This document shows, piece after piece, positions 12,215-59,766 of a DNA stretch of 64,000 bases. The translations under genes were made by a program, and so were the position numbers. The notes under the pieces were generated by a model that made no database searches, was not told where the DNA came from, and was given only the letters and a program-made list of their open reading frames with translations. Each line of letters opens with the position of its first letter. The first letter of the stretch is position 1. Source of the DNA: a virus; the IMG/VR virus record IMGVR_UViG_3300024350_000006. One strand, given 5' to 3'.

Positions 12215-12271
12215 GTTGTAGATGCCCGGTTGGGGTCTACAACAATCTTGCTTATTTTTAAGGAGAAAACA
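12215..12271 (+). promoter_or_regulatory. ROSE-like RNA thermometer in the hsp20 5' UTR
   Basis: Hairpin gttgtaga/tctacaac, then UCUUGCUUA pairing with UAAGGAGA (SD) with a bulged G; UUGCU ROSE signature. Confidence 0.7.
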
Positions 12272-12715
12272 ATGAAGCAATATTCTATTCAAACTCTTGA
12301 CCTTCCTAGTTTTGTACGCAACAGCGTGGGCTTTGATCGCCTATTTGAAGATCTTGGTCGCACCTTTGCCAACAGTCGTAGCGGAGAAAACTATCCTCCC
12401 TACAACATTAGTAAACTAGACGACACCCATTGGGTGATCGAGGTTGCAGTGGCTGGTTTCGCCGAAGATGAGATTGACGTCGAACTTAAAGAGTCAACAC
12501 TCACTATCCGCGGCACTCGTGAAACCAATGACAAAGACATTGAGTACATTCACAAGGGTATCAGCTCACGCAGTTTTGAGCGCACCTACACTCTAGGTGC
12601 TCACGTAGAAGTTCGTGGTGCTACTGTAAAAAATGGTATTCTTAGCGTGGCTCTTGAACAGGTAATTCCTGAAGAAGAGCGTGCCAAGAAGATCCCCATT
12701 ACTTTTACTAAGTAA
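12272..12715 (+). CDS. hsp20: Small heat-shock protein Hsp20 (IbpA-like)
   Basis: GFDRLF...NYPPYNI...IEVAVAGF...YIHKGISSRSFER...NGILSV. Confidence 0.93.
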   Translation: MKQYSIQTLDLPSFVRNSVGFDRLFEDLGRTFANSRSGENYPPYNISKLDDTHWVIEVAVAGFAEDEIDVELKESTLTIRGTRETNDKDIEYIHKGISSRSFERTYTLGAHVEVRGATVKNGILSVALEQVIPEEERAKKIPITFTK

Positions 12716-28052: not shown

Positions 28053-29363
28053 ATGCAAGATAAATTTGATAGTCAACCCGGGGAATACTATTGCGTGATG
28101 CCCTGGCACGGTGCATTCTATACTAGTAACGGAATGGGGGCCTGTTGTAGCTGGGGTGATTTAGAAAAAACTACTCCAATGAAATTTCTTCAAGGTGAAA
28201 ACCTAAAAAGAGTAAAAACACAGATGCTTAATGGACAAGTTCCTAAAGAATGTAACTACTGCCACGAGCAAGAGCAAAACGGATTTTACAGTACAAGAAA
28301 TCTTTATCGCGATCACGTCAAGTCCAAGAGATGGTTCGAACCTAGTCGTAGTCTAGAATTTAAAACTCCTGAAGTCCTAGAAGTTAGATTCAGCAATCTA
28401 TGTAATATGCAATGTCGTATTTGTAGTCCAGACTGGAGTCACTTAATAGGTAGAGAAGTTCAAGAATCAGACAATAACGTTCTTAAAAGATTTTATGCAG
28501 TATCTAGTAAAAAAGTAAATGAAGATCCACTGCAAGAGATACCTGATGAAAGTGTTAGTGAAATAATAGAACTAGCCAAGAAAGCCAACCACGTTTTTAT
28601 AACAGGTGGTGAACCCACCATACATAAACAAACTATACAATTAATTGATACACTAATAGAAACTGGCTGTGCTAAAAAACAAACGCTACATATAAACACA
28701 AACTGTAGTGCTATCAATCCCCGACTACTACAAAAATTTAAAGAGTTTGATAACATAATTCTCAGCATTAGTATTGATGGCACTGGGGATGTGGCAAATT
28801 ATCAAAGATACGGCACTAAATGGGAAGTAGTAGACGCAAACGTTCGTAGTCTGGGGGATCTTAAAAACAACAGTCCTGTGATTTATGGGGATGATGTCAC
28901 GCATAGTATTATCCACACTGTGAGCCTGGGAGTTAACCTTGCAGTAAGTGCCTACACAGTACTAGACATTGACACTACAATAAAATACCTTATCGACGTC
29001 TGGGACTATTGCAAATTAAGTATAGGCGTTAGTGTGGTACATTATCCTTTTAATCCTCTGACACTTCGTGGTGAATGTAGAAAACTAGCAGTACGAAAAC
29101 TAGGGGCGGCAATAGAACTGATACAGGACAAGATCGCTATAGAACCTAGGTTTGCCTTGTATATAAAAAACAGTGCCAACAGCCTAGAAGAGTTGCAAAA
29201 ATTGCAACAAGCCTTGGGTCAACCCGAAGATTCCAGTCTGGAAGCAGTAAGATATTACAATAACTTTATCTACAAGCCCACTTTGGCACTAGACCAAGTA
29301 AGAAACCAGAGTTTCGAACAACTCTTTGGTCTCCCCCTAGATCCACCAATCTTACCAGAATGA
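28053..29363 (+). CDS. Radical SAM protein with N-terminal Cys-rich (SPASM/twitch-like) region
   Basis: CNMQCRIC, ITGGEP, SISIDG; N-terminal CVMPW..CC..ECNYC. Confidence 0.85.
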   Translation: MQDKFDSQPGEYYCVMPWHGAFYTSNGMGACCSWGDLEKTTPMKFLQGENLKRVKTQMLNGQVPKECNYCHEQEQNGFYSTRNLYRDHVKSKRWFEPSRSLEFKTPEVLEVRFSNLCNMQCRICSPDWSHLIGREVQESDNNVLKRFYAVSSKKVNEDPLQEIPDESVSEIIELAKKANHVFITGGEPTIHKQTIQLIDTLIETGCAKKQTLHINTNCSAINPRLLQKFKEFDNIILSISIDGTGDVANYQRYGTKWEVVDANVRSLGDLKNNSPVIYGDDVTHSIIHTVSLGVNLAVSAYTVLDIDTTIKYLIDVWDYCKLSIGVSVVHYPFNPLTLRGECRKLAVRKLGAAIELIQDKIAIEPRFALYIKNSANSLEELQKLQQALGQPEDSSLEAVRYYNNFIYKPTLALDQVRNQSFEQLFGLPLDPPILPE

Positions 29364-31618: not shown

Positions 31619-31801
31619 GTGATTATGAGTGGGCGTGGATTTATAGCTGAAGAACCCTTGACAGTCTGTGAGTTTTGCGGCAAAATAGATGAATGTCGGC
31701 CCTACGGTCCAAATGATGAACAAATATGTTTTGAATGTGGAATGCAGGACGAAGAAACAACAAGAAAAAAGATGATAAAGTATATATTTGGAGAAGAATA
31801 A
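31619..31801 (+). CDS. Small Zn-finger protein
   Basis: CEFC...CRPYGP...CFEC. Confidence 0.6.
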
Positions 31802-31803
31802 AG

Positions 31804-32397
31804 ATGCCGCATTTTGTACCAACAGTATTAGAAAAAACTTCCAACGGCGAACGTGCCTACGACATTTATAGTCGTCTGCTAAAGGAACGCATTGTGATGC
31901 TGGACACTGATGTTAACGAACATTCAGCCAGCCTTATAGTAGCCCAATTACTTTTTCTAGAAAGCGAAGATAGTGAGAAAGATATTTACTTCTATATTAA
32001 CAGTCCCGGTGGTGTTGTTACTGCTGGTATGGCAATCTATGATACTATGCAGTTTATTCGTCCTGATGTTAGCACCATCGTGCTGGGCCAGGCCTGTAGT
32101 ATGGGCTCGCTCCTTGCACAGGCAGGCGCTCCTGGTAAACGTAAGATGCTCCCGAATGCTAGACATATGATTCATCAGCCCAGTGGCGGTGCTGGTGGTC
32201 AAGCCACAGATATGGAAATTCAGGTACGTGAGATTCTTAAAATGAAACGTAACCTGACTGAGATCTACGTAAAGCATAATAGTAGGGGCAAGACCTACGA
32301 TGAATTAGCTGCTGATATGGAGCGTGACTTCTTTATGAGCGCACAGGAGGCTGTGGCCTACGGTTTAGTTGACGAGGTAATAGTCGACCGTAAATAA
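31804..32397 (+). CDS. clpP: ATP-dependent Clp protease proteolytic subunit
   Basis: [25 protein letters not shown] (Ser), MIHQP (His), MERD (Asp). Confidence 0.95.
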
Positions 32398-32400
32398 AGG

Positions 32401-33681
32401 ATGCCGCTTAAAAATAATTTTTGCTCTAGCCCGTGGTTCCATATGAAGGTAGGGAACGACGGGTCTTTTCATTTCTGTCGCTGGGGAGAAAATAACAAGA
32501 GCACTAGTAATATTAAAAATACTCATCCAGTAACGTGGTTCCAGAATAGCACTGAACAAAAAATCCTAAGACAGGGAATGATTAATGGTGTTCAAAATCT
32601 AGACTGTCACGGTTGTTATACTATGGAGTCTCACGGTAAGATAAGCGGCAGACAACGACAACTTTTAAAGACTGGCATACAACTGGATCAGTTTGACAAA
32701 ACTATGTTATCTAGCCCCTGGTTGTCTGTGTTTAAAAGATCTGAGAATGGAGACACTGATCAAGTCCCACTGGACTGGCAAATAGATCTAGGAAATTTTT
32801 GTAACAGTGCCTGTGTGTTCTGTGTACCTGAGTCCAGCAGTAGACTGGCTAGCGAACTACATAAACTTAAAATAATAGATAGTTTGCCTGAGGAAAACTG
32901 GAGTAAAAATACCAACCAGCTAGAAAAATTACTGGATGCGCTGGAAAAAGCAAATAACACAAATAGCCTACGTTATCTGCATTTTATTGGTGGTGAAACT
33001 TTAATTATACCAGCCTTTAAGTCTATACTGCAAAAAATAACCACCCCCACAACTCTTGGTTTTACTACCAATCTCACTGTCTGGGACGAGGAGATAATAG
33101 ATCTCCTTTCTCCACATAATGTACATCTGGGAGTGAGCCTAGAAACAGTCAGTCCCCTAAATGATTACATAAGGTGGGGTAGTAGACTAGAACAAGTATT
33201 GGAAAATTTATCTAGATGGCAAACTGTGGCACAACAACGCAACTGGATAATGAGTCTACGCATAACCCCCACAGCGTTAAGTATAGGGGAACTAGACTCA
33301 GTCTACGAATATGCCTGGCAGAATAATCTTCTAGTAGAGAGTTGTAACTTTATACACGAGCCTGCATTTCTAAGACCCAGCGTTCTACCCCTGAGTCTAA
33401 GATTACAGGCTAGACACAGACTCACCAGCTGGATTAAAAACAAGGACACCGAGCAGGATCACACTGTCATTAACACTAGGGACACAAACAAGACCAAGCA
33501 GGTGTTATTACAGGATGCTAGAAGCTACATAAGTTATCTAAATACAGCACGTGATGAAACCTCACTACTGCCTAGACTTGTAGACTACATTAATAAACTA
33601 GAAACTAGCCGCAACAATTGTATACTAGACTATCTACCACAATATGCAGACACTTTCCGATCTCACGGCTACTCTAAATGA
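32401..33681 (+). CDS. Radical SAM protein (paralog of 28053-29363)
   Basis: CNSACVFC, FIGGET; N-terminal CSSPW..CRW..CHGC. Confidence 0.85.
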   Translation: MPLKNNFCSSPWFHMKVGNDGSFHFCRWGENNKSTSNIKNTHPVTWFQNSTEQKILRQGMINGVQNLDCHGCYTMESHGKISGRQRQLLKTGIQLDQFDKTMLSSPWLSVFKRSENGDTDQVPLDWQIDLGNFCNSACVFCVPESSSRLASELHKLKIIDSLPEENWSKNTNQLEKLLDALEKANNTNSLRYLHFIGGETLIIPAFKSILQKITTPTTLGFTTNLTVWDEEIIDLLSPHNVHLGVSLETVSPLNDYIRWGSRLEQVLENLSRWQTVAQQRNWIMSLRITPTALSIGELDSVYEYAWQNNLLVESCNFIHEPAFLRPSVLPLSLRLQARHRLTSWIKNKDTEQDHTVINTRDTNKTKQVLLQDARSYISYLNTARDETSLLPRLVDYINKLETSRNNCILDYLPQYADTFRSHGYSK

Positions 33682-45132: not shown

Positions 45133-45282
45133 TTGATAATTTGTATTTGTCGTAACATAAAAGAATCTGATTTTGAAACAAAAGAGGAAATGATCCAACG
45201 CATAATGCAGCTGGATCACAACTGCGGACAGTGCCAAGAGTATGTCCAAAAGTTAAAAGAATTGTTGTATGAAGTTGAATGA
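45133..45282 (+). CDS. Bfd-like [2Fe-2S] ferredoxin (49 aa, TTG start; not in ORF track)
   Basis: MIICICRNI...NCGQC (CxC...CGxC); TTGACA...TACAAT promoter at about 45066. Confidence 0.6.
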   Translation: MIICICRNIKESDFETKEEMIQRIMQLDHNCGQCQEYVQKLKELLYEVE

Positions 45283-45558
45283 AAGGTGTTCTGGACCCCG
45301 GTTCGACCCCGGGCAGGTCCACCAGAAGCATTCTCCTCAAGTATCTGATGACAATCGTTCAGGGGACGAGAAAGAGTTTAGAGTGCTTCTGATGGGCCTG
45401 AATTTGGTTTCGACAGGGCACGGAGTAAGGATATGGACAACACGGTAGGCGATCTCCGTAAAAGAAGCAAATCTATAACTGCAAACGCAGCTAATGACGA
45501 GGTCTTTGCTCTAGCAGCATAACCTCTGGGGCAACTATGCCTTATTACCCAAAATAGT
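45262..45558 (+). ncRNA. ssrA: Circularly permuted (two-piece) tmRNA; tag ANAANDEVFALAA
   Basis: T-arm and acceptor CAGGTCCACCA end at 45324, before the 5' end GGGCCTG at 45394; G3.U70 Ala pair; tag ORF 45481-45522; outer ends approximate. Confidence 0.88.
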
Positions 45559-45584
45559 ATAGGGACTTCGGTCCCTATTTTTTT
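45559..45584 (+). terminator. Rho-independent terminator of tmRNA
   Basis: atagggac-ttcg-gtccctat-tttttt. Confidence 0.85.
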
Positions 45585-45616
45585 GAATAAATACTGTAAC
45601 AAATGCCCAGACCTAA

Positions 45617-48902: not shown

Positions 48903-49916
48903 TTATACATCTTTTCCGCAGTATTTGTCGCAGATCATCATTCTACCTTGCGCATAGGTAGGTTGAGACCAAGATTCTTGAACTTTATGGAACCATTTAA
49001 CAGTGTGTTCCGTGGGATAGACTGTTGCATCGTTTTCCGTGGCTAGTGCCGCTATCTGTTTGTTAATTTTTTCGTGCCAGAGATTTTTACCAAACGTTTT
49101 AGGGAAGCTGCCAGTATAACAACAGGGATAGACTTCGCCATTGGCTGCTATGAAGATACCACTATGTTGTACAGTATCACATACTATTTTGTCCCTGGGT
49201 TTAACATATAATTCGGCATCTCTTACAGGTATGTTGTTTTTAACATTATACTTAAAATTTTCTAGTGTATTGGTATGATCTTCATTATTGAAATTGTCAA
49301 CCACGTGTAATAGTTTACCTTCTTTATCGTAGGTAGGCATATTTGAACCGTAGCTGGGACGAGTAATAAATTTAAAGCCGTGTTGATGAGCGAGTTGTTC
49401 ACATTGATCTATTTGATGTTTGTTATGTGAAAAGACAGTAAGTTTCCAAACTGCTGTGCCACCACTGGCTCTAAATATGTCAGCATTTTTTATAATCTGA
49501 CGCCAGCTGGTGTTTTGGCGATAGAGATGATGTGTATCTTCCAGTCCATCGAGACAGAATTCTACAGTAATTTTAAGTCGTCCCAGACGCTGCCAGAATT
49601 CTCTATCGCGACCACTGCCGTTGGTGCTACACACAATATAGAGTCTGGGATTGATGCTTAAAAAATATTCCACTATTTCTGGTGTTTCGGGATTCATTAT
49701 CATATCACCAAAGTTACCGCTTATTTGGATATGGTTCAATTGATTAAGAAACAGTGGAGTAAAAATTTTTTTGGTTTGCTCTAGTGTGAGATTGGTTTCA
49801 GGATAACCGCCATTGTAGGGATATCCACCAAAATTTCTAGGACAACCAGGACAACGTGCATTGCAAAAACTAGAAAGTTCTAGATGAACACTTGTTATAT
49901 TACTAAATTCTATCAT
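48903..49916 (-). CDS. Radical SAM protein with C-terminal twitch/SPASM domain
   Basis: CNARCPGC; GEVYPCC...CDKYC; TATAAATA on minus strand at 49922-49929. Confidence 0.85.
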   Translation of the reverse strand: MIEFSNITSVHLELSSFCNARCPGCPRNFGGYPYNGGYPETNLTLEQTKKIFTPLFLNQLNHIQISGNFGDMIMNPETPEIVEYFLSINPRLYIVCSTNGSGRDREFWQRLGRLKITVEFCLDGLEDTHHLYRQNTSWRQIIKNADIFRASGGTAVWKLTVFSHNKHQIDQCEQLAHQHGFKFITRPSYGSNMPTYDKEGKLLHVVDNFNNEDHTNTLENFKYNVKNNIPVRDAELYVKPRDKIVCDTVQHSGIFIAANGEVYPCCYTGSFPKTFGKNLWHEKINKQIAALATENDATVYPTEHTVKWFHKVQESWSQPTYAQGRMMICDKYCGKDV

Positions 49917-49942
49917 AGAGATATTTATAGGCGTAGTTTTTA

Positions 49943-49990
49943 ATAAAAAGATTCTATAAAGTCCATTAAAAAATAAAATGGAAAACCTAT
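49943..49990 (+). promoter_or_regulatory. OxyR-like binding site upstream of ahpC
   Basis: ATAA-N7-CTAT-N7-ATTA-N7-AAAT-N7-CTAT, 11-bp periodicity. Confidence 0.45.
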
Positions 49991-50064
49991 TGAAAATGCT
50001 TGATTTATAGGTTAAATAAAAGTATAATATTTTATCGATTAATTTTTACATAAGGAGAAACTTA

Positions 50065-50598
50065 ATGAAAACCGTAGGACATAAAATTGAGAAGTTTGCA
50101 GTAACTGGCGTTAATCCCGGTCGAGATGATTTCTTTACCATCACTGATGAATCATTTGCCGGCAAGTGGAAAGTAATTGTTTACTATCCAAAAGATTTTA
50201 CTTTCGTATGCCCAACTGAAATCGTAGCATACGATAAACTATTCCAGGACTTTGCTGACCGTGACGCAGTATTGCTAACAGGTAGTACAGACAATGAGTT
50301 CTGTAAACTAGCCTGGCAAGCAGCACAAGAAGATCTAAAAAAGATCAAACACATTCAGTTTGCTGACACACAGCGTGGTGAGTTAAGCCTAATCGAGCAA
50401 CTAGGTGTATTCTATGCACCAGCAGGTGCAGCTCTACGTGCCACATTTATTGTTGATCCCGACAACGTTATCCAGCACGTTACTGTCAATAACTTGAACG
50501 TGGGCCGTAGCCCAGAAGAAACACTTCGTGTTCTTGATGCACTACAGACCGGCGAACTATGTGCCTGCAATCGCACAGTTGGCGGCGAAACACTGTAA
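50065..50598 (+). CDS. ahpC: Peroxiredoxin AhpC
   Basis: YPKDFTFVCPTE, RATFIVDP, VGRSPEETLRVLDALQ, ELCAC. Confidence 0.95.
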   Translation: MKTVGHKIEKFAVTGVNPGRDDFFTITDESFAGKWKVIVYYPKDFTFVCPTEIVAYDKLFQDFADRDAVLLTGSTDNEFCKLAWQAAQEDLKKIKHIQFADTQRGELSLIEQLGVFYAPAGAALRATFIVDPDNVIQHVTVNNLNVGRSPEETLRVLDALQTGELCACNRTVGGETL

Positions 50599-50775
50599 GG
50601 TAAACTATGAAGCCAGTATTAATACAAACTTTAATAAAGAAAATGCGTGGACGCATCAGTAACCTACCAATGCCCAATGCTGTGGAAATTCCCACCAGAC
50701 GGGATAGATCGGGTACATTTATAATAGTTTTTTTAGTACTGGCATTAATTGCTACTATTTTAATTTGAGGTTGTT

Positions 50776-51171
50776 ATGTTAGAATGTCTTATTCTAGGAG
50801 ACAGCATTGCCAAGGGTATAAGTGATGTAAGAAGGGAATGTGCTGCCTTTGTGCAAAGTGGTATCAACAGCAGTGACTGGAACGACAAGTATGTTAAGAA
50901 AATCGTACCTGCCCGTAGTACAATTATAAGTCTAGGCAGTAACGACTACCGCAACCTTAACACTGAAATTGAATTAGTAGCATTAAGAACGCACGTAAAT
51001 TCCGATCACGTTTACTGGATAGTACCTGCAATTAAACCAGAAAAACAAGAACTAGTTAGAAAAATTGCTAGACACTTTGGGGATACTTTTGTCAATATTC
51101 CTGAACTTTCCCCTGATAAGGTACACCCCACCTATCGTGGTTATAGACAACTAGGAGTACTTACTAAATGA
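50776..51171 (+). CDS. SGNH/GDSL hydrolase-like protein
   Basis: GDSIA, LGSND, DKVHP. Confidence 0.72.
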   Translation: MLECLILGDSIAKGISDVRRECAAFVQSGINSSDWNDKYVKKIVPARSTIISLGSNDYRNLNTEIELVALRTHVNSDHVYWIVPAIKPEKQELVRKIARHFGDTFVNIPELSPDKVHPTYRGYRQLGVLTK

Positions 51172-51362
51172 GTTATAGAGAATATTTTGACTATTTAAAA
51201 AATTATCATTGCCCCAGTTGTAGGAGTAACAAACAATGAGCAAGGGAAGTAAACCTAGACCCTACAGTGTGGATCAGAAAACTTTTGATCAACGATGGGA
51301 CGCAATTTTTAAAAAACAAGATACTGATACAGATCTAAAACAAAAAGAAAAGGAAAAGAAAA

Positions 51363-51875
51363 ATGAGTTGGATAAATCAAATTAAAGAAAGTTTGCCTGA
51401 GTATGCCAAAGATACAAAACTTAATATCGATGCTGTTATTACTCGTAGCAGTCTTGATATTACCGAAGCTAATGGATGCGCTCTTGCAGCCGCAATGGCG
51501 ACCGGTAATGGAAAACTCGTTACGTTTATACAGTCAAATATGGAAGATGCCCTTGAACGAGACGCCGCACTGACAGCAGCGGCAATTATGGCACAGAACA
51601 ATGTCTGGTATCCCTATGTTGAAATGGCTGAAGATGAAAATTTAAAAGGTCTACCAGCGCAACTACGTATGAATGCAATTGCCAGTCACGGTGGCACTAC
51701 CAAGGCAAGATTTGAAGCCTATAGCCTCGCTGCAAGTATTGTGGGCAAGTGTCATTTCTGTGTTAAGGCACACTACGACACACTCAAGAAGGAAGGCTAC
51801 ACAGTAGAACAACTTCGTGACATTGGACGTATTGCCGCAGTAATCAACTCAGTTGCCAAGGTTTTAAATAGTTAA
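51363..51875 (+). CDS. ahpD: Alkyl hydroperoxide reductase AhpD
   Basis: LPEYAKDTKLN, MAQNNVWY, LRMN, GKCHFCVKAH. Confidence 0.9.
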   Translation: MSWINQIKESLPEYAKDTKLNIDAVITRSSLDITEANGCALAAAMATGNGKLVTFIQSNMEDALERDAALTAAAIMAQNNVWYPYVEMAEDENLKGLPAQLRMNAIASHGGTTKARFEAYSLAASIVGKCHFCVKAHYDTLKKEGYTVEQLRDIGRIAAVINSVAKVLNS

Positions 51876-51925
51876 ATATCACCATAATTCTTGATTTACA
51901 CTCATTGTTATGTATAATAAACAAT

Positions 51926-52165
51926 ATGAAAAAACAAACATATAATTTTGAAATAGCAATGAGTGCCCTACTCAGTCCTGAGGTTGTAAAAGAAATGGTT
52001 ATTAAAGAAGCAGAAGCCCACACTGGAAAAAAAGTAATTGAAATAGCTGCTCTTTATAAGTCCGGTGAATTCGATGGCTACCAAGTTTTCTTTGAATCTA
52101 GCACTACTCCTAAAAAGCCAGTATCCAGCAAGGAATTTATCAAGATGAAATGGGACGGGGAATAA
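51926..52165 (+). CDS. Hypothetical protein
   Basis: ORF after a sigma70-like promoter. Confidence 0.5.
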   Translation: MKKQTYNFEIAMSALLSPEVVKEMVIKEAEAHTGKKVIEIAALYKSGEFDGYQVFFESSTTPKKPVSSKEFIKMKWDGE

Positions 52166-52193
52166 ATACCCAGTAGTTAAAGGAGTAACTATT

Positions 52194-52370
52194 ATGCGTT
52201 ATGTTATAATGGTTTTCGCCCTGGCTGGCTGTGCAGACAAATATGCAGATTGCATCGAGCAACAAAAACAAGAATATCGTGATCGTAATCCCAAAGCTAG
52301 TTATAGTCAGGTGCAAAACAAACAGTTTGAATTTGAGCTAATGTGCTCTAAATTTAAAAAAGGAATGTAG
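52194..52370 (+). CDS. Small lipoprotein (not in ORF track)
   Basis: AAGGAG SD; MRYVIMVFALAGC lipobox. Confidence 0.55.
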   Translation: MRYVIMVFALAGCADKYADCIEQQKQEYRDRNPKASYSQVQNKQFEFELMCSKFKKGM

Positions 52371-52691
52371 TTGGAGTACCACGCACATATTTATTGGAGA
52401 AATGATCAAGAAAGAGCTCGTGCTATTTCTTTTAGAAATTATCTCGAAGAATCAGGATGTGTGATGGGTAGAGTTTGGGATTGGCCTATTGGGCCGCATC
52501 CATTGCCAATGTATCAAATTGTATATAATAGTAGTAATAAAGAATTAGTTGAACAGTTTCTTAGAAACCATAGGACGACTAATACCGTATTGTTGCACGA
52601 AAGTATTAATGACGATTTACGTGATCATACTGAGGGCGCAAGATGGTTAGGCGAAGCATTAGAATTAAAGTTAGACATTTTTAAAGAATAG
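52371..52691 (+). CDS. DOPA 4,5-dioxygenase family protein
   Basis: YHAHIY, PIGPHPLPMYQ, VLLH, DHT..A.WLG..L. Confidence 0.78.
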   Translation: MEYHAHIYWRNDQERARAISFRNYLEESGCVMGRVWDWPIGPHPLPMYQIVYNSSNKELVEQFLRNHRTTNTVLLHESINDDLRDHTEGARWLGEALELKLDIFKE

Positions 52692-52701
52692 GAGAATAAC
52701 A

Positions 52702-53262
52702 ATGGCCTAGATAGCTTACCAATGTAAAGATATAGTATTTCACTTCAACAAACGACACCTAGAGGACGACACCATCCCTATGTGGGTAGTTAAAAGTCAC
52801 GGTGTAACCTTTTACGTTAATCACGTAACCGCAGAAGTTCCCTGGAGTACCAAGGAAACTCCAGATAATTCCCATACCAAAGGTAGTTTAAAGTTTAAAA
52901 ATTGTAAGTTAATCATCGACGATGATAACTGTGCTACGATTACAAAACTTGGGCTATTAGATAAAAAATTACCTCACCCAAGATTAATCTTTAGGATTCT
53001 TTTCTATAATAACGGTGAAGTTCATAAAGCATTAAAAGACAATGAGTTTGAGCATACTGAATTTAAGTTTGTATCTGGTGGTTGTGGTACGTCCTGGACT
53101 ATCTGTGATATCCTGCACGAACACGATCAGACTATGTTAGGTTTAAAGTATGCAACCAAATTTAGAATTCTTAGTCCTAATGAAGGCTACTATAAAGCCT
53201 ATGACGAAAAAGGTCAGTGGATACAAGAAGATGAAGATTACGAAGACGAACTAGATGACTGA
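52702..53262 (+). CDS. Hypothetical protein with in-frame TAG at codon 3 (track ORF starts 52780)
   Basis: GGAG SD, ATG GCC TAG, then an open frame continuous with the 52780 ORF. Confidence 0.55.
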
Positions 53263-53546
53263 CGTAGTTCATCATATGTTTGAACAATGGCAATTTTACT
53301 AGGATCAGATTTACTGTCGCTAGGTACTGGTAAGGTTTGCCATTCTTCTTCGCTGACGTCACAGACTATAACTAGTTCGTATTCGTGTCCATCTGAACTG
53401 TAGCATCGGACGGTTTCTAGTCCCGCTAGACCCTGGGCGGCATCTTCTAGATGTCTAGCCAGGGATCTTAGTGCGGATCGTTCTGCTACAATATAACCTC
53501 GTGTACCTGGTCCTTGGTGTGAATGTAAGTGTATTCTTGATTTCAT
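53238..53546 (-). CDS. Hypothetical protein coupled to dnaE
   Basis: ATGA overlap with the dnaE stop. Confidence 0.6.
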   Translation of the reverse strand: MKSRIHLHSHQGPGTRGYIVAERSALRSLARHLEDAAQGLAGLETVRCYSSDGHEYELVIVCDVSEEEWQTLPVPSDSKSDPSKIAIVQTYDELRQSSSSSS

Positions 53547-55216
53547 TGTATGTGTGCTATGTCGATTAATTTTAATTTTTTAGATTTAAACACTGTAACA
53601 TATTCTGTGTTGTTTTTGTAGCCAAGTTTACCGAATCCCCACAAAACTGGATGATCTTGAAAACTTGCCGCGTGTGGTAGCACAACATCTAGGTAACGGC
53701 CATTACCAGTACCCAGTGTGACAAAGGTTATATAATCTTTCGCTCCTGATTTAAACACACGATAGTTAGCCACTAGACCACAAAACTCCACCTGGCCGGG
53801 CTTGCGTATTTCCTGACAGGCTGGTATAAATCTTGAAGAACGCCAACGTCCCTGTTCAATGAGATCACTTACCTCGCCACCTTCTCCCAATGAGGGAACT
53901 GCGCCAGCTAATTTGGCTTCCTGCCAGTAGACCCAGTGTGCGTAACTACCCTGGCAGTGTTTGAGTGCAGCTTGCCAAAACTTTTCTGGGTTATGAGCTT
54001 TTTGGTAGGCCAAGGCCCAGATAAGTCTGCCTAGATTTATGGCGTGTGCTCGGCAAAGTCCGAAGTGACTGAGTTCTCGTAGTGCTAGTAGTACATCATC
54101 TCGTCTTGGATGATCACCCACTAACTGCATAAACTCAAACATTTTTTCTTCATTCTTTTTTGCAAATGCACGACGCCACATATCAGCTTCATACTGATCA
54201 CAACCTAGTATCTGTCCTATTAGTTCAATGGCATCATCTTCAAAGACAATAGTTTCTGATAGGTTATCTTTTGTCCAGTCCTGGAAGGCACTGGCTCGGC
54301 GGCGGCCTTGTGTGGCCACTGGTCTTATTAGTGCTGTGGCCAATACGCAGTCGGCACGACTAGTGGGACGTATGGCTCTAAATAATCTTTTCATAGCAGG
54401 ACTTTCTGCCTGCGTAACACCCAGTATGTCTCCACGACTTAATAGAGCTGAGGTTTTGTCATCTGTTTCAGGATAATCCAAGAGGTCACGTTGCTCTATT
54501 TCCCAGAGCTGACTAAGTCCACGGTTGGATAATATGTCTATTTTAAAATGCTCAAGATCTTCTATCTCATATTTGTCTAGTAGTATCTGATTCTCACCGT
54601 TGATTAAACTTTTAGGTACACTACGATCAAATATCAGTATGCCGCCACAGTGTTTAGAGATACATCGTTTTTTGCCTAGTAGTTTATCTGCTAGACGTTC
54701 TGCTTCATCAACGTATTCTTCTGCCACAACGTCTGATAGTTTAAAATTACGTTTGAGTTTACCCTTGGCGCCGTAGCGTTTGGCAGCTTCGCGTCTTGCT
54801 GATTTTTCTTTGTAGGTGACATAGTTACTTACACGGGCACTCTGACCGGGCCAGCGGCGGAAGATTCTGTTCATTACAGTTTCTTGTTGATAATGCGGAA
54901 AGTCAAGATCAATGTCGGGTAGATCGTCCCTCTTGGGATTCATAAAACGTGAAAGGGGTATACGTTCTTTTATGGGATCTACATCACTGATGCCCATCAC
55001 GTAACAGATTAAACTGCTGCCTGCTGAGCCACGAGTTATATGTGGTATGTCTTGTGTTAGGTCTAGTATTTCTCTTACACGTAAAAAATGTTTGGCAAAT
55101 CCCAGTTTAGCTATTATCTCTAGTTCTTCTTCAAGTCTTTTAGTATATTCTTCAGTGTCGGGTATTGATCTAGTAAATTTTTTAATTAGTTTTTCGAGTT
55201 CGTCATATCGGTTCAT
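53543..55216 (-). CDS. dnaE: Minimal DNA polymerase III alpha-like (C-family), no PHP domain
   Basis: RGSAGSSL, DLPDIDLDF, KHCGG, KIDIL, ALIRP, RAHA; 557 aa. Confidence 0.85.
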   Translation of the reverse strand: MNRYDELEKLIKKFTRSIPDTEEYTKRLEEELEIIAKLGFAKHFLRVREILDLTQDIPHITRGSAGSSLICYVMGISDVDPIKERIPLSRFMNPKRDDLPDIDLDFPHYQQETVMNRIFRRWPGQSARVSNYVTYKEKSARREAAKRYGAKGKLKRNFKLSDVVAEEYVDEAERLADKLLGKKRCISKHCGGILIFDRSVPKSLINGENQILLDKYEIEDLEHFKIDILSNRGLSQLWEIEQRDLLDYPETDDKTSALLSRGDILGVTQAESPAMKRLFRAIRPTSRADCVLATALIRPVATQGRRRASAFQDWTKDNLSETIVFEDDAIELIGQILGCDQYEADMWRRAFAKKNEEKMFEFMQLVGDHPRRDDVLLALRELSHFGLCRAHAINLGRLIWALAYQKAHNPEKFWQAALKHCQGSYAHWVYWQEAKLAGAVPSLGEGGEVSDLIEQGRWRSSRFIPACQEIRKPGQVEFCGLVANYRVFKSGAKDYITFVTLGTGNGRYLDVVLPHAASFQDHPVLWGFGKLGYKNNTEYVTVFKSKKLKLIDIAHIQ

Positions 55217-55408
55217 TGATCACCTATGTTAGATTCTAGGTAGAAATATTTATAGTTCTAAAACTAGTGTTAAGAACTTTTGGATCATATGCTAATGAAA
55301 TCACTTAGTATAAAATAATGATTCACTGGATATGAATCTTGGGAATTTTTAGTTATAATTGGGATACATACAGAGACAGTATGTCAATTTTTATCAAGGA
55401 GAATGAAA

Positions 55409-55483
55409 ATGGCTTGGACAACACCAGCAGCACAAGATATGCGTTTTGGTTTCGAAATCACAATGTACATCGCAAATCGTTAA
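55409..55483 (+). CDS. pqqA: PQQ precursor peptide PqqA, MAWTTPAAQDMRFGFEITMYIANR (not in ORF track)
   Basis: 24 aa with W-x-x-P and GF-E-I-T-M-Y (ExxxY) motifs; AAGGAG SD; own TATAAT and terminator. Confidence 0.93.
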   Translation: MAWTTPAAQDMRFGFEITMYIANR

Positions 55484-55492
55484 TAAAAAATT

Positions 55493-55513
55493 AAGCCCCG
55501 CAAGGGGCTTTTT
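55493..55513. terminator. Bidirectional terminator between pqqA and the glycosyltransferase gene
   Basis: aagcccc-gcaa-ggggcttttt. Confidence 0.8.
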
Positions 55514-55556
55514 GCTGGTTACGAGTTCCAGCGGCGCTCTATCAACACACCCGATT

Positions 55557-56264
55557 TCAACTCCAATATTTAGAATTATTGTTATCCCAATACTTTGTGT
55601 TATTACGATTTATAAAATTTTTAATCAAATACCAAGCCATACCTAGGTATCCCATCTTTTTAAACCTACGGGAATCCTGTCCAAAATAATGATCAACAAT
55701 TTTAAACTTCTTAGGATGATACATTCTTGACAAGAAGAAATCTTCTGAAGTGGCAAATTTCTCAGGGAACCCTCCATATTCTTCAAACTTGTCTCTACGG
55801 GTCAACATAAATGCACCCACAGCAAAAGGACTAAAATATTTTAAAACGTCATTAATACCATTAAAAATCATAAATCCAATAGCTGCTCTTACATCATCGT
55901 CATAACATCTAATTTTTAATCCAACTAAATCTAAATTATTATTTTCTAGTTGTTCTACTGCGTCACGAATAGCATAATTATCGAAAAATCTCACATCCGA
56001 GTCAATAAATAATATATAGGGTGTGTTTACTAGTCTTGCTCCATTATTTCTTGCTACAGAAACAGGCCCACCATCAATAATTTCAATGTTTAAAAAGAAA
56101 CTGTTATTTTGTATAATCTGTCTTGTATTATCAGTAGAGTAATCAGCAATAATAATTCTAGTTGAACCTATTTCCTGTTTTCTAAGATCGTTAAGTAGAT
56201 GCCCGATATACTTTTCCTCGTTATAACAGGGAATCACAATTGTAATTTTATCTTTTAATCTCAT
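55557..56264 (-). CDS. Glycosyltransferase family 2
   Basis: IVIPCYNEE, STDNT, ARNNGA, LFIDSD, GAFML, EDF. Confidence 0.85.
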   Translation of the reverse strand: MRLKDKITIVIPCYNEEKYIGHLLNDLRKQEIGSTRIIIADYSTDNTRQIIQNNSFFLNIEIIDGGPVSVARNNGARLVNTPYILFIDSDVRFFDNYAIRDAVEQLENNNLDLVGLKIRCYDDDVRAAIGFMIFNGINDVLKYFSPFAVGAFMLTRRDKFEEYGGFPEKFATSEDFFLSRMYHPKKFKIVDHYFGQDSRRFKKMGYLGMAWYLIKNFINRNNTKYWDNNNSKYWS

Positions 56265-56433
56265 TTTTAAAACACTTTCCGTCAATTTTAAATGATTCAA
56301 ACTTTACCCAATAACTCATTGATTTTAAACTTTGTTCGCACGTTGTCTGATCAGGAAATTCCAGAGTTAGTTTTGCGGGAACGTCCTTTGGATCGTTTAC
56401 GTGTACCGCTATCAATATCATCAACCACATCAT
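56248..56433 (-). CDS. Small secreted two-Cys protein
   Basis: MMWLMILIAV...FPDQTTCEQ...GKC. Confidence 0.5.
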   Translation of the reverse strand: MMWLMILIAVHVNDPKDVPAKLTLEFPDQTTCEQSLKSMSYWVKFESFKIDGKCFKNEIKR

Positions 56434-57181
56434 CTTGCTCCTGTGTCCAAGTTACTATTTCCCAAGTGCCATTGTGATGTTCTACTAGAGCAGTCATTGA
56501 TTCCACCCAGTCACCGTCATTCATATACACAACACCGTCTATGTTCTTGATCTCTGCGTGATGTATGTGCCCACATATAACACCATCAAATCCACGTTTT
56601 TTACAGTATGCGGCTAGATTCTTTTCAAATTGAAATATAAAGTCTACCGCTTTCTTAACTCTTCCTTTAAGATATAGACTAAGACTCCAATAACCAAAAC
56701 CAAGGCGATGACGTATCCAGTTGAATCGTGAATTAAGTCCCAATACAAAATCATATGCACGATCTCCCAATAAAGTTAACCAGGGGGCTAGTCTAGTAAT
56801 ACCATCAAATAGGTCGCCGTGTGTAACTAGATAATGCTTCCCATCAACACCAATATGTTCAAATTGATTATGTAATTCCACCATTCCAAAATTTAAATTA
56901 TACTGCAAAAAGGGTCTTAAAAATTCATCGTGGTTACCAATTATATACACAACTCTTGTGTCACGCTTTGCGTGACCTAAAATACGTCGAACAACGTTGG
57001 TGTGGCTTTGTTTCCAACGCCATTTGTTTTGCTTGATTTTCCAAGCATCTATAATGTCACCTACTAGATAAAGAGTTTCACAGGTGTTATGTTTCAAAAA
57101 ATTATTGAGTGCTTCAGCTTTACAATCTTTAGTACCTAGGTGAACATCACTAATAAAAATACTACGATAAGTTTTGTTCAT
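56351..57181 (-). CDS. plcP: PlcP-type metallophosphoesterase (phospholipase C; LpxH2-like family)
   Basis: RSIFISDVHLG, LVGDIIDAW, GNHDEFLR, HGDLFD, YWSLS..LK..VK.AV, DGVICGHIHHA, NDGDWVES. Confidence 0.78.
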   Translation of the reverse strand: MNKTYRSIFISDVHLGTKDCKAEALNNFLKHNTCETLYLVGDIIDAWKIKQNKWRWKQSHTNVVRRILGHAKRDTRVVYIIGNHDEFLRPFLQYNLNFGMVELHNQFEHIGVDGKHYLVTHGDLFDGITRLAPWLTLLGDRAYDFVLGLNSRFNWIRHRLGFGYWSLSLYLKGRVKKAVDFIFQFEKNLAAYCKKRGFDGVICGHIHHAEIKNIDGVVYMNDGDWVESMTALVEHHNGTWEIVTWTQEQDDVVDDIDSGTRKRSKGRSRKTNSGIS

Positions 57182-57186
57182 ACAAA

Positions 57187-57221
57187 TATTTAAGGTTTAC
57201 CAAATTACAAATCCATTACAT
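57187..57221 (-). promoter_or_regulatory. Pho-box-like promoter of plcP
   Basis: Minus strand atGTAATggat-ttGTAAT-N11-TAAATA. Confidence 0.65.
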
Positions 57222-57256
57222 AGTCAATAAAAAAGCCCCTTTCGGAGCTTTTTTAA

Positions 57257-58681
57257 TTAGAAGTTCAATTGACTTCTAAACATTATGGCTCGATCACCAG
57301 TTACTCGACCACCTGCAGAGCCTACAAGTTGATCAAACTGCGTGTCAACATAGTTAAGCATAAATCTCATATTATCAGTAGCGAACCAAGTTAGACCGTA
57401 GGTAATAGCTGTAGCACGATTTGATTTACCTGTAGCTACGGTGATGTCGCTAGCATCAAACTCGCTTAAACGTACACCTATTTGCCAGGCACCGCGACCA
57501 CCTTTGTCTAGAGGATTGTTGGGTTTAACTGCACCGAACACTCCATCCTTGTAGTTATAACCTTCGCCTGTCAGGTTGTACACAGCCAATACATAGTAAC
57601 CTTTAATTTCCTTATCTGCACCTGTTGTAGGATCATATTTAAAATTAAATTGTTCTGCTTGTACTTTGAATGCGTTATAGGCAAATGCAGCTTCTAGACC
57701 TTGACGTGTTCTTGTAGTGATGCCACCGAGTGCTGGACCAGTAAACCAGGCATTTTGTGAGCGTGATTCTGTCCTAGCACTAGCAGGTGTTACACCACCT
57801 TTTATCTCACCTGTACTGTAAGCAGCACCCAAATGAGCAACATACGTCTTACTGCCAGTAAGATCAGCAATGTTAGTAGTAACACGACCAATATAGTCTA
57901 GACCATCTGATACAGCATCTTTGTTGCCACGACCACGACTTACTGCTAGAGCGTAAGTTAATCCAGTTTTTGGTACACCGTGTAGCATAAATCCAGTTTC
58001 TTTTGCGGGAATTAGTTCGCCTTCCGCTTGACCAACTAGGCTGCGTTCCATCATATCAATGTTGTTAGAACTTTGTAGTTGTTCAAGACTGAATGGCATC
58101 TTGAACAAACCAAATTGGTATTGTAGTTCTGGATTAGCAGCATAGTTGACCCAGGCTACGTCCATATTAGTTGACGAACTAGCTGCACCTACATCGTTAC
58201 CAAAGTTACCAACTAGTTCGTATTTGAAGTCTTTGGCAAATTGTCCACGCACTCCAAAACGTGCGCGGCGCATTTCTGCTAGGTCCTGATACGAATCCGT
58301 GGTTTGACCTGCACCGTAAGTCGGGGAGTATTGACGATAGTCCATATGTAGTCGACCTGTAAGCTGAATGGTATTGTTGCCATCTTTGCTTTTGAGACCG
58401 ATTCCGTTTTCTGTGACTGCGCCGTCGTTGACTCTTGCGATTCTATATTTGTTTGATTCGCTGACATCCTTGTCTATTCTTTGTTCTATGAACTTACGGT
58501 TTTCTGCTCGTTCTTCGTGAGCTTGTACTTTACTGTCATATTCACTCTGCGTCAATATACCTTTGTCCTTTAAAATTTTTAAAGTATCAAGGTAATCGTC
58601 TGCATAGGCTGGTACACAAAATGCAAGACTAAAGGCCAGAGCTAGTGTTGTTAATTTTTTCATTTTTTTCCTTATTTCCAA
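57257..58681 (-). CDS. Phosphate-selective porin (OprO/OprP family)
   Basis: Signal peptide, GRLHMDY, RRARFGVRG, GLFKMPFSLEQLQSS, C-terminal QLNF. Confidence 0.82.
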   Translation of the reverse strand: MEIRKKMKKLTTLALAFSLAFCVPAYADDYLDTLKILKDKGILTQSEYDSKVQAHEERAENRKFIEQRIDKDVSESNKYRIARVNDGAVTENGIGLKSKDGNNTIQLTGRLHMDYRQYSPTYGAGQTTDSYQDLAEMRRARFGVRGQFAKDFKYELVGNFGNDVGAASSSTNMDVAWVNYAANPELQYQFGLFKMPFSLEQLQSSNNIDMMERSLVGQAEGELIPAKETGFMLHGVPKTGLTYALAVSRGRGNKDAVSDGLDYIGRVTTNIADLTGSKTYVAHLGAAYSTGEIKGGVTPASARTESRSQNAWFTGPALGGITTRTRQGLEAAFAYNAFKVQAEQFNFKYDPTTGADKEIKGYYVLAVYNLTGEGYNYKDGVFGAVKPNNPLDKGGRGAWQIGVRLSEFDASDITVATGKSNRATAITYGLTWFATDNMRFMLNYVDTQFDQLVGSAGGRVTGDRAIMFRSQLNF

Positions 58682-59697
58682 ATTGTTGTATTGTCTGGAC
58701 CTTTAAGATCCTTTTTCCAGTTATCCTGTACTAACTTGATAACTGACTGTGGCAAGTGAACATACTCTAGCTCTTCACTCATCTTAGCACCGTTCTTATA
58801 ACTCCAGTCAAAGAATTTAAGAATTGCACGACCTGTTAGTGCATCAGTTTGTTGCTTGTGCATTAAAATAAAACTTGCACCTGTAGCTGGCCAAGCATCC
58901 TTACCTTTTTGATCTGTTAGCAACAAATACATTCCTGGAGCATTAGCCCAGTCTGCATTAGCTGCTGCCGCTTTAAATGTACTATCATCTGGTTGTACAA
59001 AATTACCATCACGATTTTTTAATTGTGCATAGGCAATTTTATTTTTTTTAGCAAAGGCATATTCAACATAACCAAACGAACCTTTAACACGTTGAACGTT
59101 AGCTGCCACGCCTTCGTTACCTTTGCCGCCTACGCCCACTGGCCATTTAACTGCGGTGCCCTCACCAATGGCCTTTTGAAATTCGGCATTAACTTTACTT
59201 AGATAGTTTGTCCAAATAAATGTTGTGCCCGATCCATCTGCACGATGAATAACTGTAATATTGATTGCAGGTAGATTAACACCAGGATTCAAATCAGCAA
59301 TTGCTTTGTCATTCCATTTTGTAATCTTACCTAGATGTATATTAGCAATGACATCGCTGGTTAGTTTAAGTTGTCCAGGTTGTACTCCATCTAGATTAAA
59401 CACAGGCACTACGCCTCCTATGATGGCAGGGAACTGTACAAGTCCTTCTTTATCTAATTCCTCAGGCTTTAGTGGCATATCACTGGCACCAAAATCAACT
59501 GTCTTGGCTTTGATTTGACGAATACCGCCACCTGAACCAATTGATTGATAATTTAATCCAATACCAGTTGAAGCTTTATAAGCCTCGGCCCATTTAGAAT
59601 ATATTGGATAGGGAAAGGTAGCACCTGCTCCAGTTAGGTCTGCTGCCTCAGCGGATATAGCTAGTGAGGAAAACAATACCAATAAAAACTTTTTCAT
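58672..59697 (-). CDS. pstS: Phosphate ABC transporter substrate-binding protein PstS
   Basis: GAGATFPYP, QSIGSGGG, DFGASD, HRADGSGTT, GKGNEGV, GYVE. Confidence 0.95.
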   Translation of the reverse strand: MKKFLLVLFSSLAISAEAADLTGAGATFPYPIYSKWAEAYKASTGIGLNYQSIGSGGGIRQIKAKTVDFGASDMPLKPEELDKEGLVQFPAIIGGVVPVFNLDGVQPGQLKLTSDVIANIHLGKITKWNDKAIADLNPGVNLPAINITVIHRADGSGTTFIWTNYLSKVNAEFQKAIGEGTAVKWPVGVGGKGNEGVAANVQRVKGSFGYVEYAFAKKNKIAYAQLKNRDGNFVQPDDSTFKAAAANADWANAPGMYLLLTDQKGKDAWPATGASFILMHKQQTDALTGRAILKFFDWSYKNGAKMSEELEYVHLPQSVIKLVQDNWKKDLKGPDNTTIWK

Positions 59698-59713
59698 ATA
59701 TAATCTCCATTTA

Positions 59714-59766
59714 ATGTGCATTGCACAAAAATATTTAAACACAGGCATATTACCGTTTAATTACAA
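59714..59766 (-). promoter_or_regulatory. Pho-box-like promoter of pstS plus TGTGCA-A-TGCACA palindrome
   Basis: Minus strand ttGTAATtaaa-cgGTAAT-N11-TAAATA, then TTGTGCAATGCACAT. Confidence 0.65.

Follow-up and report, generated by a model that had tools for sequence, protein, structure and literature searches.

A stand-alone pqqA gene in an uncultured T4-like freshwater phage, probably an auxiliary metabolic gene for PQQ synthesis by the host

Viral PqqA has been described as an auxiliary metabolic gene (AMG) in T4-like phages from Lake Baikal whose predicted hosts are Methylophilaceae (Coutinho et al. 2020, Microbiome 8:163, PMC7678222), and viral pqqA is listed in a 2026 paper among P-cycling AMGs, as phosphate-solubilising (PMC13188868). 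The DNA analysed here, a 64-kb stretch of an IMG/VR virus record (hereafter the window), contains a gene of the same kind, and the novelty implied by its preliminary description is therefore not upheld. Like the Lake Baikal phages, the source of the window is a large T4-like freshwater phage with a stand-alone PqqA, taken to be an AMG in support of PQQ-dependent dehydrogenases. Unlike the window, the Lake Baikal contigs also encode a viral methanol dehydrogenase, and their predicted hosts are Methylophilaceae, whereas the window is without methanol dehydrogenase, its PqqA is of the EITMYIANR type, and its PstS suggests a host clade resembling Oxalobacteraceae.

Two further groups of genes invite comparison. 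The cultured Methylophilales phages Melnitz, Venkman, MEP301, MEP401/402 and P19250A possess orphan pqqA genes of 23-24 codons with peptides 64-73% identical to that of the window, but belong to other phage lineages and infect OM43 and LD28; pqqA is not mentioned in the Melnitz paper. Methylophilaceae chromosomes carry 3-12 orphan pqqA copies versus one pqqBCDE, surplus copies of this sort being usual in bacteria with heavy PQQ use (PMC4109929); these copies resemble the phage gene in being extra precursor genes away from the enzyme operon, and differ from it in being chromosomal and in encoding a different peptide subtype.

Identity and expression signals of the phage gene

The pqqA gene of the window extends from an ATG at 55409 to a TAA at 55481-55483 and encodes 24 aa (window:55409-55480:+). 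The product scores 38.5 bits against Pfam PF08042 (cut-off 21.1) and 38.7 bits against the NCBIfam equivalog TIGR02107 (cut-off 20), the latter over the full length of the model (1-21 of 21). Its Glu16 and Tyr20 form the E-x3-Y pair, numbered as are the cross-linked residues of the M. extorquens PqqA, in which Glu and Tyr are joined by PqqE and the leader is bound by PqqD (PMC10906245). The N-terminal part contains a W-x-x-P motif, a putative PqqD-recognised leader, and a basic residue precedes the core. With both curated cut-offs passed and both of these residues present, the earlier identification of the peptide as PqqA holds.

A degenerate DNA pattern for the PqqA core, F-G-F-E-[IV]-T-M-Y, was run over IMG/VR, where by our estimate about one chance match is expected; it matched at least 120 contigs, all of those listed having a PqqA ORF of 23-24 codons. 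Across 111 distinct viral nucleotide versions, the frame, length and stop of pqqA are kept; the Trp, the Pro, the Arg and the position of the stop are invariant, though outside the search pattern; and all six codons are used for the invariant Arg before the core. The pN/pS of these 111 versions is 0.19 overall and 0.32 without the eight codons fixed by the search pattern. The pqqA ORF is real and under purifying selection, beyond chance.

Table 1. Features of the window, with positions counted from its first nucleotide.
Feature	Position	Strand	Evidence or remark
pqqA CDS (24 codons + stop)	55409..55483	+	PF08042 and TIGR02107 over cut-off; purifying selection
Shine-Dalgarno AAGGAG	55396..55401	+	sequence; 7 nt before ATG 55409; conserved in relatives
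-10 hexamer TATAAT	55354..55359	+	sequence; TAnAAT-like hexamer at the same place in most aligned relatives
Upstream box, ~30-50 nt before the transcription start	55317..55345	+	partly conserved in an alignment of 14 viral cassettes
5'-UTR inverted repeat ACATAC ... GTATGT, 6-7 bp stem	55364..55384	+	directly after the -10
G+C-rich hairpin with T runs on both strands	55493..55515	.	terminator shared by pqqA (+) and the GT2/phosphate operon (-)
Pol III alpha-like gene	53543-55216	-	flank; divergent neighbour of pqqA
GT2 gene	55557-56300	-	flank; convergent neighbour of pqqA
Operon of PstS-like binding protein, phosphate-selective porin O/P, LpxH/PlcP-like metallophosphoesterase and GT2	55557-59748	-	
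Redox-flavoured genes: radical SAM/SPASM (-), AhpC, unassigned 131-aa protein, AhpD, DOPA 4,5-dioxygenase-family protein	48903-53262		
Radical SAM/SPASM gene	48903-49916	-	5.4 kb from pqqA
Twitch-domain radical SAM gene, first paralogue	28053-29363	+	NF033640, 238 bits
Twitch-domain radical SAM gene, second paralogue	32401-33681	+	NF033640, 225 bits
ClpP protease gene	31735-32397	+	directly upstream of the second twitch-domain gene
tmRNA, circularly permuted, two-piece	45222-45613	+	Rfam beta_tmRNA 127.7 bits; tmRNA_permuted 131.6 bits
Hsp20 homologue	12230-12715	+	far from pqqA

The ORF had been credited with its own TATAAT, AAGGAG Shine-Dalgarno sequence and terminator and with an orientation against its neighbours; all of these are located in the sequence (Table 1), pqqA being opposite in strand to both flanking genes. 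A second in-frame ATG, at 55403, stands only 1 nt past the Shine-Dalgarno sequence, so that 55409 is the likely start. Fourteen viral cassettes can be aligned outside the CDS, and the aligned elements are the upstream box, a TAnAAT -10, an inverted repeat, a Shine-Dalgarno sequence and a terminator hairpin. A canonical -35 is absent upstream of pqqA, and the promoter scan, finding no sigma-70 -35/-10 pair, made no call there; the upstream box is possibly the site of an activator or other regulator. Reading the upstream region as a sigma-70 -35 or as a T4 late promoter was rejected for poor spacing or conservation.

The inverted repeat of the 5' UTR occurs once in the window. In 12 relatives a hairpin occupies the equivalent position, and four different stem sequences are represented among them; taken singly the hairpins are weak, 46 of 200 shuffles of the window copy folding equally well. 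Such an element may stabilise the small mRNA or act as an operator. Downstream of the gene, the stem of the terminator hairpin (55493-55510) is followed by a run of T on the + strand and by one of A/T on the - strand. The terminator-scan tool called it on the - strand only; the T runs on both strands and its location between the convergent pqqA and GT2 genes fit a bidirectional terminator, and a hairpin lies 3' of pqqA in nearly all aligned relatives. The divergent neighbour encodes a pol III alpha-like protein of 557 aa with NTPase and finger domains only, which is widely conserved (80 IMG/VR loci, 57-91% identity).

Phage origin, distribution and orphan status

The window derives from an uncultured T4-like freshwater phage with rIIA and rIIB, probably with a genome of ~370 kb, as implied by CheckV estimates, which put related IMG/VR contigs of 107-167 kb at 29-45% completeness. 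Its genes include those of a tail-fibre-like protein, virion proteins, a GH19-type endolysin domain, GP88, UvdE and RIIA, which scores 425.8 bits against its PHROG; rIIB lies just beyond. RIIA, virion-protein and endolysin genes flank pqqA on both sides, and pqqA is not at a host junction. A 19-kb megablast query had no match in the phage collection. The identical pol protein occurs in 100 recorded blocks of public assemblies, and 23 contigs with the identical pol gene were read; the longest public contigs of the phage are ena:ERZ27251499:k141_196869 and jgi:3300027467 Ga0255154_1000007. All six independent ENA/JGI contigs that were fetched, derived from different ENA and JGI samples and assemblers and up to 149 kb long, have the identical pqqA cassette beside the identical pol gene; gene callers missed pqqA on these six.

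It is scarcely conceivable that the ORF arose by chance, or that it is a piece of host DNA brought in by chimerism or misbinning of the contig. Such errors exist, as illustrated by the 'Acinetobacter phage' records of the collection that are bacterial and contain pqqABCDE, and a host chimera had been named at the outset as an outcome that would overturn the viral interpretation. That outcome is contradicted by the equal arrangement on at least six independent contigs from different samples and assemblers, which indicates that the pqqA segment is not chimeric, and by the phage genes on its flanks. The promoter, UTR and terminator are unlike those of the host gene and common to other viral contigs, and the HMM scores are far above the cut-offs.

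A viral-database search for PqqA had been proposed, and it proved productive: in addition to the IMG/VR contigs noted above, cultured phages were recovered. Searching 50,697 phage records with the phage peptide by tblastn gave 12 matches: nine in cultured Methylophilales phages, namely Melnitz (4 records), Venkman, MEP301, MEP401, MEP402 and P19250A; one in an uncultured spring phage; and two in records labelled 'Acinetobacter phage MD-2021a' (CAKLQF020000010.1 and CAKLQH020000055.1). The former of these two (L010) is really a bacterial chromosome contig with pqqBCDE, ppk, fur and mod genes; the latter has a 13-kb match and is apparently a bacterial contig of the same kind. In 11 more distant viral contigs (L121, L129, L133, L134, L157, L164, L167, L179, L182, L186 and L201), an Hsp20 gene is situated within ~1.5 kb of pqqA.

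Annotation has largely passed these genes over. In the six phage records whose annotation was inspected, pqqA is unannotated or an antisense ORF is annotated in its stead, which is explained by the frame antisense to pqqA being open in 93 of the 111 viral versions. Examples are Melnitz (MZ577097.1, 76134-76205) and MW202481.1 (2122-2187), both of which list the antisense ORF as a hypothetical protein and omit pqqA. PqqA has no match among the PHROG families.

The enzymes that act on PqqA were sought at several scales. The preliminary description found no pqqBCDE in the window, and this is borne out: Acinetobacter PqqB, C, D and E had no tblastn match there at E<=1, and TIGR02109 is matched by none of its three radical SAM proteins (one SPASM, two paralogous twitch-domain proteins). 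Four related contigs of 107-167 kb (G001-G004) gave no match to models of PqqE or PqqC, the positive control for the PqqC search scoring 424 bits on a bacterial contig. An IMG/VR phage of 356 kb (G010), 96% complete and with ~25 proteins in common with the window, possesses pqqA; PqqB-D were not found in it, and its similarity to PqqE is only that of generic radical SAM proteins. Neither PqqE nor PqqC was found in five complete cultured methylophage genomes with pqqA, each named phage being represented by a single record, and the fetched flanks of the 120 or more IMG/VR contigs contain none of pqqB-E. A profile of 14 bacterial PqqC proteins matched one IMG/VR contig, a 10.7-kb fragment of a giant-virus MAG (IMGVR_UViG_GVMAG-S-1026894-104_000001) encoding a PqqC relative with 52% identity, which could be contamination.

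Adjacency to pqqBCDE, one of the marks by which PqqA is recognised, is thus lacking in the window and its relatives. It is not an absolute criterion, since the pqqA of the likely host is itself unlinked and orphan copies are common (PMC4109929). The gene is dispensable in this phage lineage, as only two of nine related partial contigs carry it. The 3-kb flanks of the pol gene at 80 related IMG/VR loci include pqqA in one contig (L014) only, a count that understates its presence, as another of these contigs (L012) has pqqA just outside the flank.

Affinities of the likely host

The phage PqqA, with its ...EITMYIANR ending, is of a type seen in various Burkholderiales and differs from the dominant type among viral copies, the Methylophilaceae ...EVTMYV(M/C)N(K/R). 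The closest cellular PqqA had been expected to indicate the host. Of the matches listed for the sampled genomes, the best at the nucleotide level is to pqqA from Oxalobacteraceae bacterium MsE-6, 90% identical over the CDS; a closer cellular PqqA may lie beyond this sample, and the host assignment that follows from this check is moderately supported.

Other genes point the same way, PstS being the best of the clues to the host. The PstS of the phage is 80% identical to that of MsE-6 and 72-80% identical to those of ~20 relatives, versus at most 70% for the best PstS among 300 genomes sampled across the order. The phosphate porin of the phage is 50-56% identical to the MsE-6-clade porin, and in the MsE-6 genome the porin gene and pstS are ~7 kb apart. 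The tmRNA of the phage is of the betaproteobacterial type. ARAGORN predicts for it a 13-residue tag ending in ...FALAA, and a DNA search for the tmRNA in the candidate host clade, run without a positive control, gave no match. Judging by the similarity of one 24-aa peptide and of two or three genes of probable host origin, the host is probably a non-methylotroph of the Burkholderiales clade around Oxalobacteraceae bacterium MsE-6, an assignment with moderate support.

The five MsE-6-clade genomes that were searched have one pqqA each, and all five have PqqC. Their pqqA is identical to that of the phage at 21-22 of 24 residues and at 55-62 of 69 core nucleotides (80-90%). It is likewise monocistronic, with a terminator of its own, and unlinked to pqqC where both genes are on long contigs (MsE-6 itself and G028). 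The promoter, 5' UTR and terminator of the clade gene are unrelated to those of the phage cassette, which indicates that the phage placed the pqqA CDS under signals of its own. PQQ alcohol dehydrogenases of the methanol/ethanol family score over cut-off in 13 of 23 genomes of the clade, and a membrane-bound PQQ dehydrogenase of the glucose/quinate type in none of the 23.

Proposed function and alternatives

Viral AMGs are host-derived metabolic genes kept by selection inside bona fide viral genomes, and this is what was found here. The orphan pqqA is probably an AMG by which the phage supplies precursor to the PqqBCDE of its host. The preliminary description of a RiPP-precursor AMG that provides substrate only agrees with the data in that the DNA is phage DNA, the peptide is a true PqqA, the gene is an orphan, and the host clade possesses PqqC and PQQ dehydrogenases; the conversion of the phage peptide by the host is the step that we infer.

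One PqqA peptide is consumed for each PQQ made. A phage that shuts down host transcription would need to replace only this consumable, because the peptide is destroyed one per PQQ while the enzymes turn over. During infection, the phage would transcribe a monocistronic cassette comprising the -10, the 5' hairpin, the Shine-Dalgarno sequence, 24 codons and the terminator, and the product would be a peptide nearly identical to the host's own PqqA. The W-x-x-P leader would be bound by host PqqD, the Glu16-Tyr20 cross-link would be made by host PqqE, and a host protease, PqqB and PqqC would complete PQQ. The phage copy would thereby replace or multiply the single pqqA of the host during infection, existing host enzymes continuing to work, and the PQQ would allow periplasmic alcohol dehydrogenases of the methanol/ethanol family to keep feeding the respiratory chain. 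This model predicts that the gene is expressed in infected cells, that host enzymes process the peptide and that the phage benefits. Conversion of added PqqA to PQQ by cell extracts is among the findings cited in PMC9851590.

A boost of PQQ might instead serve another purpose, either phosphate solubilisation via a PQQ-dependent glucose dehydrogenase or antioxidant protection. The surroundings of pqqA lend this some colour: in the window it adjoins genes for PstS, a phosphate porin, a PlcP-like phosphoesterase and GT2; in relatives it adjoins the AhpC/AhpD/131-aa cluster or the PlcP-like gene; and viral pqqA has been filed under phosphate-solubilising AMGs (PMC13188868). The neighbourhood, however, is a shuffled AMG island in which neighbours vary between relatives, the position of pqqA shifting among AhpC, AhpD, the 131-aa protein, the PlcP-like enzyme, GT2, PstS and the porin. 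The glucose/quinate-type membrane enzyme, moreover, is the one that none of the 23 genomes of the likely host clade encodes over cut-off, whereas the methanol/ethanol type is common, and a purpose of this kind is accordingly improbable. In relatives, pqqA directly adjoins either the 131-aa gene or the AhpD gene.

Less probable still is that the peptide is no substrate supply at all, acting as a decoy that ties up host PqqD/PqqE or controls PQQ synthesis in the host, or serving the phage's radical SAM/SPASM protein as substrate for a different cross-linked product; a milder variant, in which the upstream box and the 5' palindrome let the cassette act as a regulated switch under a host signal, shares in the same slight probability. 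The window has three radical SAM genes, and the SPASM protein is weakly similar to peptide maturases, yet it has no TIGR02109 match, its best score is 36.9 bits against PapB (cut-off 340), and it matches neither Acinetobacter PqqE by tblastn nor any PDB sequence. Nor does it travel with pqqA: among related contigs, G002 has a SPASM homologue without pqqA, G001 has the two 43 kb apart, and G007 has pqqA, with no SPASM homologue found. The small cultured phages with pqqA gave no match to a PqqE-like radical SAM protein. The phage PqqA, furthermore, retains all the residues expected of a competent substrate.

Supply of precursor to the host enzymes thus being the favoured function, the value of the locus is for annotation and ecology rather than as a new concept, the idea having already been published. 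It is another instance of a pqqA missed by gene callers and by phage family catalogues, with no PHROG and an antisense ORF annotated. The pattern, known from phages that infect methylotrophic Methylophilaceae, here reaches a giant freshwater phage, the likely host of which is a heterotroph resembling Oxalobacteraceae that has a single pqqA and several PQQ alcohol dehydrogenases. The locus would also be a clean case of a divided cofactor pathway, in which the phage brings just the RiPP precursor that is consumed and the enzymes are left to its host.
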